This document shows, in pieces, positions 15,246 through 17,165 of a stretch of 64,000 nucleotides of DNA. Under the pieces are notes generated by a model, which saw only the letters and a program-made list of their open reading frames with translations, had not been told where the DNA came from and searched no databases. Position numbers and translations under genes: made by a program. How positions within the stretch are numbered: the stretch's first letter is position 1; every line of letters begins with the position of its first letter. Source of the stretch: an uncultured Candidatus Obscuribacterales bacterium (lineage in GTDB: Bacteria > Cyanobacteriota > Vampirovibrionia > Obscuribacterales > Obscuribacteraceae); contig CAZBOX010000002.1 of the NCBI GenBank assembly GCA_964493595.1, positions 2,003 to 66,002 of the forward strand, in the 5' to 3' direction.

Positions 15246-17165
15246 TCATTTTTGACCGTGAGCGATGAGCTCGCTCAAACGCGTTTCATAGGAGAGGATC
15301 ATGTCCTCAGCCTTCTGAAGGTCGCCTGCTTCCAGCGCCTCCTCTGCTTTCTGAGCGAATGCGGAGAGCGCTTTGCCAGGTGTGATCGCGTTGGTGGCAG
15401 CGCGTGCCTGCGCGTCGGTCAGACGCTGGCGCAGCGATTCCTTTGTAGGCGGCACTGCCGGAGCAGGTGTCGCCGGAATCGGCTGCGGTGCAGCTTCGGT
15501 GACCGGCTCGGCATGTGGCTTTGCGGCCAATTCAGCCTGCCGGGTTTCGTAGGAGTGCACCATCCTTTCGGCACCTTCCAGGTCATCCGTTCCGATAAGC
15601 TCTTCAGCTTTCTCGGCGAATTTACCCAGTGCCTTGTCTTCACCGTGACCGGCTGCCACAGCTTTCGCTCGCGCTTGCGTGAGCCGGTCCTTGAGGGCGG
15701 TCTTGGGGTCGACGGCCGGGGCGGCGGGCGTGGAAGCCTCCTCCTTGGTGGCCTTGTCCTTCGGAGGATGGACTTTGAACTCTCCCAGCTTCACCTCGTA
15801 GGAGTTGACGAAACCCTCGGCGGCGTCAAGTTTGCCATTGTGAATGGCATCCTCGGCAGCCTTGGCGAAATTCACCAACGACTTCTGATTGGCAAAACCG
15901 AGCGCTTCCGCTTCTTCCTTCGCCTTGTCCAGCCGGCGCTGCAAGCGGACATCAGCGGGCGCTTGTTCCCAGGCAACGATGAGACCGGCCAGGCGAGTCT
16001 CGTAGCTGGTCACCGCCATCTCGGCAGCGCTCAAGTCGAGCTTGTCGCCTGCAGCCTCCTCGAACTTCCTCTGGAATGCGTCCAGCGCCTTGTCGCTGTT
16101 CAACCCTTTGTCAGCGTTATCGAGACGCTTCTTGCGGGCTGCTTCCATGCGCGTCTTGAGTGCTTCGGCTTTCTGAAGGAGTGCCTCCATATCGCGCGCC
16201 GTCTGCTTGTACAGATCCTCAAGCCGCTGTGCCTCCCGATTCCAGCTGTCCAGACCGCGCTCTACGTCCGCGAATTTCTTGGCGGCAAGCGCAGTATTGA
16301 TGGTCTCCAGCTGGTCGACCAGTTCTTTGGTCTTGGGAGGTTGTTCGAGGGTGACGCCCTTCAGCGCCTCGTCCACTTTCTTTTGAGCGTCCAGCGCTTG
16401 CACGCGGAAGCCACGCACCTGCTCGAGTCGAGCGTAGGCGCGTTTGACGTCCTCGCCGATGGACTCGCGATCGTGTTCCATCTTCTGGATGACGATGCGG
16501 GCCTTCGTTATGTATCTGCCGATCTCCTCGTCGAATCCTTTCGGCTGAAGAGACAGCGGATTGCTCAGTCGGGTGCGGTCGAAGCTGCTGAGACGCGCCT
16601 CGATGTCGCTCAGCTCGGCAGGTTTCGGCTTGCCGACGCTGTTGACGCGAGCATCCAGCTGCTCTGCCTCTTCGCGCCGGCGCCTGGCCACTTCAGCCAG
16701 GTCGAGCCAGCGCTGTCGCAGATTGAGGAAGAATTTGTTGGCCTTGTCGTAGGCCGCCACCATGGTCTGCTTCAGGTCGTCAGGCGTGGTCGTCTGCTTT
16801 TGCGTGGCAGAGCCGAGCAGACCTCTCTCGTGAGCAGGAACGCTCACAAGCGACAGCTGAATCGATTGCCCATTCAAGAGCTCATCGATTTCATTGATGG
16901 CTTCCTGCCGTCCCGACCAGCGCGGCAAGTTGTCGCGCTTGCGCTGGGCTTCTTCGACGACGTCGCGAATCAGCTTCAGGTATTCCCAGAGCTTCTCGAC
17001 GGTGGTGAACGCTTCGTGACACTTAGTGTCCGTTTCGCCTGTCAGCTGGTTGGCTTTGGCCGTCACGTATCCGCCGCCTGCCTCGAGAGAAGCGAGGTTG
17101 GCGTTGATGTTCGGCAAATCCACCTTCCAGCTGGCCAGCTTTTTATCAAGCATATCGAGAGTCAT
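15246..17165 (-). CDS. Coiled-coil repeat protein of unknown function, paralog of 54654..55958
   Basis: 639 aa with a GGAGGA RBS. Four C-terminal repeats of about 55-85 aa each end in SYE(T/V)(R/K)L-type motifs (SYETRLAGL, SYEVKLGEF, SYETRQAEL, SYETRLSEL). The N-terminal 340 aa align by eye with the second locus. Confidence 0.8.
   Translation of the reverse strand: MTLDMLDKKLASWKVDLPNINANLASLEAGGGYVTAKANQLTGETDTKCHEAFTTVEKLWEYLKLIRDVVEEAQRKRDNLPRWSGRQEAINEIDELLNGQSIQLSLVSVPAHERGLLGSATQKQTTTPDDLKQTMVAAYDKANKFFLNLRQRWLDLAEVARRRREEAEQLDARVNSVGKPKPAELSDIEARLSSFDRTRLSNPLSLQPKGFDEEIGRYITKARIVIQKMEHDRESIGEDVKRAYARLEQVRGFRVQALDAQKKVDEALKGVTLEQPPKTKELVDQLETINTALAAKKFADVERGLDSWNREAQRLEDLYKQTARDMEALLQKAEALKTRMEAARKKRLDNADKGLNSDKALDAFQRKFEEAAGDKLDLSAAEMAVTSYETRLAGLIVAWEQAPADVRLQRRLDKAKEEAEALGFANQKSLVNFAKAAEDAIHNGKLDAAEGFVNSYEVKLGEFKVHPPKDKATKEEASTPAAPAVDPKTALKDRLTQARAKAVAAGHGEDKALGKFAEKAEELIGTDDLEGAERMVHSYETRQAELAAKPHAEPVTEAAPQPIPATPAPAVPPTKESLRQRLTDAQARAATNAITPGKALSAFAQKAEEALEAGDLQKAEDMILSYETRLSELIAHGQK

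Follow-up and report, generated by a model that had tools for sequence, protein, structure and literature searches.

A large, almost all-helical protein family represented in the Ter block and in a PknG-type kinase cassette of an uncultured Obscuribacterales bacterium

A 64,000-nucleotide stretch of contig CAZBOX010000002.1 (positions 2,003 to 66,002) from an uncultured Candidatus Obscuribacterales bacterium, referred to here as the window, carries a gene for a protein of 639 amino acids (aa) between a terD array and terC. The original prediction held that this protein, X639, is collinear with the protein encoded at 54654-55958 (X434), 37 kb away at the head of a kinase/phosphatase/vWA operon, and that a shared dedicated partner connects the two loci. 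This raises the question of what these proteins are, and whether their likeness says anything about cooperation between the Ter block and the kinase operon. As judged from their sequences, X639 and X434 are ancient paralogs in one large unnamed and almost all-helical family, which we call X. The homology and the gene context are near certain. That X serves as a scaffold or adaptor at both loci is the reading we lean towards, with slightly more confidence than doubt, and its mechanistic part is much less certain than homology and context.

Homology of X639 and X434

Both genes are located on the minus strand:

15246..17165, minus strand: X639, the Ter-type member; open reading frame (ORF) of 639 aa plus stop, ATG start
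15978..17165, minus strand: family core of X639, aa 1-396; alignments and a hidden Markov model (HMM) of the end module
54654..55868, minus strand: X434, the kinase-cassette member; match to profile A3 (see below), longest ORF to 55958
54657..54836, minus strand: single end module of X434 (RRDMRGLMEALKVKAVAEG...VKQYQDKVLG); alignment and BLASTP

Most likely, X434 starts with the TTG at 55868 and comprises 404 aa, since a GGAGG is found 7 nt upstream and P0021, the closest homolog (96% identity), starts at this position.

Composition-adjusted BLASTP of X639 against X434 gave E=2e-20 and 27% identity across 319 aa, and the alignment was collinear (q41-339/s82-388). The segments noticed earlier by eye, NLPRW/NLPRI, P(A/L)(H/E)ERGLL (VPAHERGLL/VPLEERGLL) and GL(D/S)(S/N)W (GLDSW/GLSNW), are all included in it. 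An alignment of 16 sequences of both types showed collinearity from the N-terminus through the end module. Using profile A3, which consists of kinase-locus members from other phyla only, scores of 182 bits for the X639 core, 207 bits for whole X639 and 299 bits for X434 were obtained; 1000 shuffles did not exceed 8.6 bits. Reciprocally, X434 reached 116 bits with a profile of Ter-type members only, and 1000 shuffles gave at most 8.1 bits. Because the reciprocal subfamily profiles yielded 182 and 116 bits compared with less than 9 bits in 1000 shuffles, the similarity is not compositional. Thus, the formal pairwise and profile alignments for which the original prediction had asked confirm collinear homology beyond coiled-coil composition.

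One might still suspect that the family is an artefact of mere coiled-coil composition, as some members have coiled-coil-type source names ('chromosome segregation ATPase', 'DUF342 family') and weak SMC matches of approximately 16 bits occur. This explanation is ruled out by the composition-corrected BLASTP result, the shuffle-tested profiles and the survey of PknG adjacency described below; conserved motifs that are specific and non-heptad, and the same gene order across phyla, also speak against it. We regard its probability as negligible. The SMC score of only 16 bits compares with a cut-off of 567, so an SMC-like ATPase identity was rejected as coiled-coil noise. The names DUF342 and DUF484 given to some members were likewise rejected, the window proteins having no Pfam match to either.

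An exhaustive profile search, with clusters counted at 50% identity, retrieved 2224 cluster representatives at E<=1e-3; at E<=1e-30 there were 852. The great majority are approximately 400 aa long. A word-index homolog search with a 150-sequence profile yielded only about 25 further proteins. For this family of more than 2000 such clusters, neither a Pfam or NCBIfam model nor a solved structure exists, and defining it would help to annotate many genomes of Cyanobacteria and Actinobacteria. The family core of approximately 400 aa contains the motifs MTLxxID..W (N-terminal), G-x-T, VPLxxRGLL, DPL and GLxxW and an end module of about 60 aa. Both window proteins match the 400-position family profile collinearly, including G-x-T, VPLxxRGLL, DPL, GLxxW and the terminal ..Y[EQ].. 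module. In X639 these motifs appear as N-terminal MTLD..W, G43-x-T45, VPAHERGLL, NPLS, GLDSW and the first end module. The T86 position is occupied by Thr in 185 and by Ser in 26 of 213 sequences.

Orthologs of X639 share 52-86% identity with it. Its exact sequence is present in public collections, and its cluster includes a fragment that carries the name 'hypothetical protein [Candidatus Obscuribacter sp.]'; Candidatus Obscuribacter is a non-photosynthetic relative of Cyanobacteria. As the original prediction had assumed, the family is uncharacterised: for X639, X434 and 20 other members, nothing above noise was found in Pfam and NCBIfam, and these models revealed no recognisable catalytic domain in X639 or X434. 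Precomputed Pfam annotation, including newer models such as PF28326, was empty for every member seen. PADLOC returned only two JetC matches for X proteins (approximately 13 bits, E ~0.004), which we read as noise. In a sequence search of the PDB the best match was a de novo designed protein (E=4.4e-4, with no single stretch reaching significance); coiled-coil noise, for example spike HR1, came next. The helical family was not described in the literature searched; Anantharaman et al. 2012 may contain a prior mention. N-terminal fusions to the X core were observed in P0074, P0109 and P0134, namely to a Peptidase_M48-like zincin with HExxH, an unknown domain of approximately 230 aa and a class III cyclase-like domain.

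AlphaFold2 (AF2) was used to predict both structures as monomers. The X639 model is nearly all helix, with a predicted local distance difference test score (pLDDT) of 85.9; the X434 model has a pLDDT of 86.4 and a predicted template modelling score of 0.60. Both models contain three very long helices of 49-64 residues and a C-terminal three-helix module, and in X639 the extra modules are predicted as separate three-helix units. We read these end modules as bundles. A small beta hairpin is placed beside the conserved VPLxxRGLL loop, which itself is modelled with low confidence. The label 'coiled-coil' used in the original prediction is imprecise. Foldseek searches of the PDB with both models gave nothing significant (best E 0.4-0.75). 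The best partial match to both was EzrA (PDB 4uy3), a spectrin-like repeat rod which has long helices in common with the models; this match is below significance (E=2.6, probability ~0.3, template modelling score 0.15-0.41). The X639 repeat region matched the DnaK lid weakly (E=7.8). Profile self-comparison detected no significant internal repeats in the family core (off-diagonal E>=0.06), and hence it is from AF2 secondary structure only that X might be described as a spectrin-like repeat rod.

The Ter-type member and its locus

The C-terminal part of X639 is composed as follows:

15978-16169, minus strand: end module 1, aa 333-396; module HMM
15774..15959, minus strand: end module 2, aa 403-464, ..NSYEVKLGEF; BLASTP, module HMM, AF2 helices at 404-421, 428-442 and 446-465
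15711-15773, minus strand: Pro/Ala linker before module 3, aa ~465-485; pLDDT <50 at 470-483
15525..15710, minus strand: end module 3, aa 486-547, ..HSYETRQAEL; AF2 helices at 487-504, 511-525 and 529-548
15450-15524, minus strand: Pro/Ala linker before module 4, aa ~548-572; pLDDT <50 at 551-569
15264..15449, minus strand: end module 4, aa 573-634, ..LSYETRLSEL; AF2 helices at 575-591, 598-613 and 616-635

Comparison of the modules by BLASTP gave E-values from 2e-15 to 2.4e-4, for example 2e-15 for modules 3 and 4, 2e-10 for modules 2 and 4 and 7e-9 for modules 1 and 4, while modules 1 and 3 showed no direct pairwise match. Module 3 also matched the single end module of X434 (5e-4). By the module HMM, each of the 20 full-length Ter-type proteins had exactly four copies; a divergent protein had three, and kinase-type proteins had a single copy where it was detectable. 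The fourfold amplification of the end module in the Ter copy, with Pro/Ala linkers between the last three modules, is hence borne out by module HMM, BLASTP and pLDDT, and these linkers are predicted to be disordered. Each copy has its own signature, which is kept across orthologs; the amplification must therefore be old and maintained.

A plus-strand ORF of 741 aa (14994-17219) spans all of X639, and other genes in this GC-rich block are likewise overlain by long antisense ORFs. They are read as shadow ORFs, since all homology evidence is in the minus-strand frame.

X639 is embedded in a complete Ter block, which extends on the minus strand from 7.6 to 21 kb of the window. The biosynthetic side of the block encodes ATP-grasp_Ter, C-C bond lyase, StiP-PELOTA, a HAD-like protein and PRTase_2-TRSP; TerD and TerC are thus accompanied by the PRTase, StiP, C-C lyase and ATP-grasp module, the combination that defines a Ter operon. 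Around X639 the following features were found:

20445-21044, minus strand: TerD; Pfam TerD match
19551-20276, minus strand: TerY-like vWA protein; sub-threshold VWA_2 match (E=0.005) and a DxSxS..T..D metal-ion-dependent adhesion site pattern
18786-19460, minus strand: TerD; resembles the Pfam-matched TerDs by eye, start probably an internal ATG near 19370
18064-18648, minus strand: TerD; translation resembles the Pfam-matched TerDs by eye
17383-17937, minus strand: TerD; Pfam TerD match
15200..15239, minus strand: 18-bp GC-rich hairpin, 7 nt past the X639 stop, with pyrimidine-rich tail; sequence
14073-14900, minus strand: TerC, downstream of X639; Pfam TerC 1.4e-48, longer ORF to 15113

The 275-aa form of TerC, starting with the ATG at 14900, is the version in public collections, where the exact sequence is source-named TerC. 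The X639 gene lies between terC and the terD gene at 17383-17937. This position is typical: counting the window, the Ter-type gene directly follows a terD gene in nine of nine loci, and terC comes next in seven of the nine. The usual order is TerD, vWA, TerD, TerD, TerD, X, TerC, a small membrane protein and the biosynthetic genes. The gene order of the window is repeated in L006 and L099-L101. No match to TerB or TelA was found among the scanned ORFs of the window Ter block, which leaves X639 as its only all-helical protein without an assigned family.

The hairpin behind X639 is probably a terminator or attenuator separating the terD-X unit from terC. An equivalent hairpin with a GAAACGG..CCGTTTC stem follows the X stop codon in L006, L007, L099, L100 and L101, and its inner-stem sequences differ. 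The terC leader of approximately 345 nt (14901-15245, minus strand) is 86% identical to its L101 equivalent; in L006 and L007 it is conserved in part. The yybP-ykoY manganese riboswitch often precedes TerC-family genes; in a comparison of the leader with Rfam, neither this element nor any other match was found at the gathering threshold or at E<=10.

Further genes of the locus recur in related genomes. A predicted membrane protein of 102 aa without known family is encoded between terC and the PRTase gene (13190-13498, minus strand), and tblastn recovered it from the corresponding position of L006, L007, L100 and L101, and in two copies from L099, with 47-63% identity. The Ter block is flanked by a gene for an inosine-uridine nucleoside hydrolase-like protein, both in the window (22848-24155, plus strand) and in L006 (2902-4230); this protein might belong to the nucleoside-like metabolite pathway predicted for the Ter biosynthetic module.

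Other architectures of X exist as well. In L005 (P0020, 470 aa) and for P0062, a Ter-linked variant with the order TerD, X, TerC has one end module; instead of extra modules these proteins carry an internal duplication of the preceding 'G.W...GL..W' segment, which represents another route to lengthening. The X protein P0087 of L090/L091 (473 aa) has a duplicated inner segment and neither a kinase nor terC nearby. Genes around it encode, among others, a TerD-domain protein of 381 aa, a 1106-aa protein that matches SrfB weakly, a Tubulin_2 protein and several large unknowns.

The kinase cassette and the relation between the two loci

X434 heads a cassette on the minus strand and is located 58 nt upstream of a gene for a PknG-like kinase:

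52241-54595, minus strand: PknG-like kinase with the domains PknG_rubred, Pkinase and PknG_TPR; Pfam
51160-52521, minus strand: PP2C with zinc ribbon (PP2C_2); Pfam
49797-51176, minus strand: vWA protein with VWA_3_C; Pfam
49090-49752, minus strand: zinc-ribbon FHA protein; Pfam
47703-49157, minus strand: GlnX-family membrane protein; NCBIfam NF058618, 316 bits versus a cut-off of 250
46796-47719, minus strand: GlnH-like SBP_bac_3 protein; Pfam

The GlnX-family protein did not reach the level of the GlnX-proper equivalog NF041460 (106 bits versus 780).

The gene neighbourhoods of kinase-type homologs were surveyed in one genome per species, using the peptide pattern GRL[DE]AL[KQ]AK and the best 80 loci ranked against a cyanobacterial query. 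A kinase with PknG_TPR was encoded within 3 kb downstream on the same strand in 62 of the 64 loci having at least 3 kb of downstream sequence. The distance from X to PknG was usually within about 300 nt, and the genes sometimes overlapped; overlapping stop and start codons were frequent. The full downstream set of PknG, PP2C, vWA, FHA and GlnX was present in 43/54 loci, usually in the order X, PknG, PP2C, vWA, zinc-ribbon FHA and GlnX, sometimes together with a GlnH-like binding protein. With Ter genes at one type of locus and the PknG kinase at the other, the neighbourhood survey suggested earlier thus ties the homologs to either system.

Most of the 80 loci belong to Cyanobacteria (Nostoc, Calothrix, Tolypothrix, Scytonema, Leptolyngbya, Pseudanabaena and others). 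Kinase-type loci were also found in Bryobacteraceae (Acidobacteria), in Actinomycetota including Nonomuraea gerenzanensis and in a metagenome-assembled genome (MAG) of Acetobacteraceae (Proteobacteria). A search for the family on plasmids gave Nonomuraea alone, in a record without annotation. In the permuted operons of L003, L069, L074, L082 and L092, GlnX is directly upstream of X, and X still adjoins PknG. L097, an actinobacterial contig, has a cyclase-like domain fused to X and PknG alone downstream, without PP2C, vWA, FHA and GlnX.

The cassette at 46796-55868 of the window, which also occurs in L008-L089 and L098, joins the GlnH-GlnX-PknG pathway to a vWA/PP2C/FHA module. A description of this seven-gene X-PknG-PP2C-vWA-FHA-GlnX-SBP cassette was not found in the literature searched. 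L003 and L004 (a Xanthobacteraceae MAG) contain a permuted version with the order TelA, vWA, FHA, GlnX-like, X, PknG, PP2C, in a region without terD and terC, which links TelA directly to the kinase cassette. Two further Ser/Thr kinases are encoded on the minus strand of the window, one with TPR repeats directly upstream of X434 (56468-59098) and one with leucine-rich repeats (38386-40401). The former is not kept beside X in the closest relatives, L008 and L009.

Given this context, X could also serve the PknG/PP2C pair mainly as substrate or phospho-docking protein. In this case, the kinase would phosphorylate a conserved Ser/Thr of X, such as the near-invariant G-x-T or the [ST]-P after the RGLL loop, and the FHA protein would bind the phosphothreonine. 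The nearly invariant adjacency of X and PknG, the FHA protein and PP2C phosphatase in the same cassette and the prevalence of Thr or Ser at T86 fit this idea, and a low model confidence, as seen for the conserved RGLL loop, is expected of a flexible docking site. However, the conserved Thr and [ST]-P are at N-terminal ends of predicted helices, where Ser and Thr commonly act as helix caps, and need not be phosphosites. Moreover, the Ter-type paralog keeps the G-x-T and [ST]-P residues though its locus is without kinase, phosphatase and FHA. In the archaeal ArnA/ArnB pair it is the phosphorylated vWA partner that is bound by the FHA protein, so that the presence of an FHA protein can be explained without X. 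We consider this main rival to the scaffold or adaptor role rather unlikely.

The survey also bears on the claim that a shared dedicated partner links the two loci. In a neighbour-joining tree (no bootstrap), the four-module Ter-type proteins formed one clade and X434 was placed in a separate kinase-type clade. In none of the 80 kinase-type loci was terD or terC present within 10 kb of X. The genes between the two window loci are ordinary ones (citrate synthase, pyrophosphatase, Sir2, NUDIX and others), and the vWA proteins of the two loci showed no BLASTP similarity, which rules out a co-inherited pair of X and vWA. The claim was therefore not upheld. The two copies in the window are locus-specific paralogs without a single shared partner, and their paralogy reflects the reuse of one module type in two systems and is no evidence of cross-talk.

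A stronger form of the linkage idea is that both paralogs belong to one shared adaptor system which physically joins the Ter block to the kinase/phosphatase/vWA operon. Both loci occur in one genome at a distance of 37 kb, each has a vWA protein and a family member, and published work connects Ter genes with vWA/PP2C/kinase triads (Anantharaman et al. 2012, summarised in PMC11090510). The separate clades, the lack of terD and terC around the surveyed kinase-type genes, the intervening housekeeping genes and the dissimilar vWA proteins argue against such a system, as do the fixed neighbours of each paralog and the four-module architecture that is particular to the Ter type. In our view, a physical connection of this kind is improbable.

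Possible role and comparison with known systems

A role of X as scaffold or adaptor is suggested by the lack of a recognisable catalytic domain, by long helices combined with an end module that can be multiplied on linkers, and by a fixed partner gene. X would couple a membrane component (GlnX or TerC) to soluble partners. In the kinase cassette, X434 might act between the GlnX membrane sensor and the TPR domain of the PknG kinase; this domain of PknG has been described as a scaffold for signal detection (PMC8546545). In the Ter block, X639 might tie TerD and the TerY-like vWA protein to TerC, and the end module would be the partner-binding unit. The main branch of the family is the gene directly upstream of a PknG-type kinase, and a smaller clade was taken up by Ter operons, where it stands between the terD genes and terC. 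In these operons the end module has been amplified fourfold, with flexible Pro/Ala linkers among the last three copies. What is shown is the homology, the size of the family, its architecture and the conserved order of the genes, whereas we infer the non-enzymatic nature of X, every physical interaction and the direction of signalling. The scaffold or adaptor that the original prediction placed between the two loci is thus plausible within each locus but improbable between them.

Several points weigh against a scaffold or adaptor. The kinase-type survey is biased, being based on one peptide pattern and a ranking by a cyanobacterial query, and the tight linkage to PknG would equally fit a substrate or a regulator of the kinase. 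The Ter locus has no kinase, so that the paralogs cannot share the same soluble partner, nor are the vWA proteins of the two loci detectably similar. A published actinobacterial glnX-glnH-pknG operon has no X-like gene (PMC8546545); PknG signalling does therefore not always depend on X. A stoichiometry of one end module per TerD (4:4) would fit the window, L006 and L099-L101; it was rejected because L093 has four modules and three terD genes in view.

More specifically, X might be the missing cytoplasmic link from GlnX to PknG in most phyla, the operon of Mycobacterium and Corynebacterium being a reduced one from which X was lost, and the four-module form might assemble TerD and TerY on TerC. 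We put this forward tentatively and with more doubt than confidence. If true, X would be a general module for membrane-to-soluble coupling that is common to two stress-signalling systems. In the abstract of a 2026 preprint, GlnX is still termed 'uncharacterised' as to how GlnH ligand occupancy is relayed to PknG, and for this reason the periplasmic signal route to the kinase appears open. X is an obvious candidate for the GlnX-PknG step, since its gene directly precedes those of PknG-type kinases in several phyla and in some cases comes immediately behind GlnX. For Ter systems, whose mechanism is obscure, X639 adds a conserved component with four docking-like modules between the TerDs and TerC in one lineage.

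Among known proteins, TelA/KlaA (PF05816) resembles X in being helical, in its size of approximately 390 aa and in its occurrence in Ter-related operons. It might be asked whether X is a membrane-stress effector like TelA, TerB or PspA which binds or stabilises the membrane or TerC directly. X639 is indeed helical, of TelA-like size and encoded beside terC in a block whose scanned ORFs gave no TelA or TerB match, and the TelA gene heading the L003 kinase cassette demonstrates that such proteins join these operons. However, no similarity of X to TelA was found by sequence or profile. TelA identity was rejected, in accordance with the original prediction, as there was no PF05816 match at E<=1 and comparison of the family alignment with a TelA sequence by hhalign gave a probability of 0.1. 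Nor did X proteins match PspA_IM30 in Pfam or the ESCRT-III fold; the Foldseek match of X639 to Vipp1 (8qbw) was not significant (E=4, probability 0.05), and Vipp1/PspA was absent among the 50 matches listed for the X434 model. No transmembrane segment was noticed in the sequence, which was viewed without a formal prediction. In addition, TelA and X occur together in L003, where neither substitutes for the other, and the kinase that accompanies the main branch of the family is soluble. A membrane effector is an unsupported and improbable alternative to the scaffold or adaptor role.

The archaeal ArnA/ArnB module is not known to contain an X-like protein. The zinc-ribbon FHA and vWA (VWA_3_C) proteins of the cassette have the same domain pair as ArnA/ArnB of Sulfolobus, a likeness that concerns the neighbours of X.

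The TerY-P triad consists of vWA, PP2C and Ser/Thr kinase (Anantharaman et al. 2012; defence version, Gao et al. 2020; both as summarised in PMC11090510). Likewise, a single operon of the window, the kinase cassette, encodes vWA, PP2C and Ser/Thr kinase proteins (Pfam VWA, PP2C_2 and Pkinase), with a Ter block in the same genome. In contrast, the canonical TerY-P kinase has a C-terminal zinc ribbon or OB fold, according to PMC11090510, whereas the window kinase ends in PknG_TPR. The vWA, PP2C, FHA and GlnX proteins together matched six PADLOC models, and 25 of the 34 PADLOC matches of the kinase were listed; no TerY-P model was among either set. An X-like component of the triad was not described in the literature searched, with a prior mention in Anantharaman et al. 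2012 being possible.

Another known counterpart of the cassette is the GlnH-GlnX-PknG system of Actinobacteria (PMC8546545, PMC9769921, PMC6069109), with which it shares the PknG architecture, a GlnX-family protein and SBP_bac_3. Compared with the published glnX-glnH-pknG operon, the cassette has X, PP2C, vWA and zinc-ribbon FHA in addition and is found mostly outside Actinobacteria. Taken together, the Ter, vWA/PP2C/kinase and GlnH-GlnX-PknG systems are known ones, and X is a conserved extra component that the literature searched does not describe.

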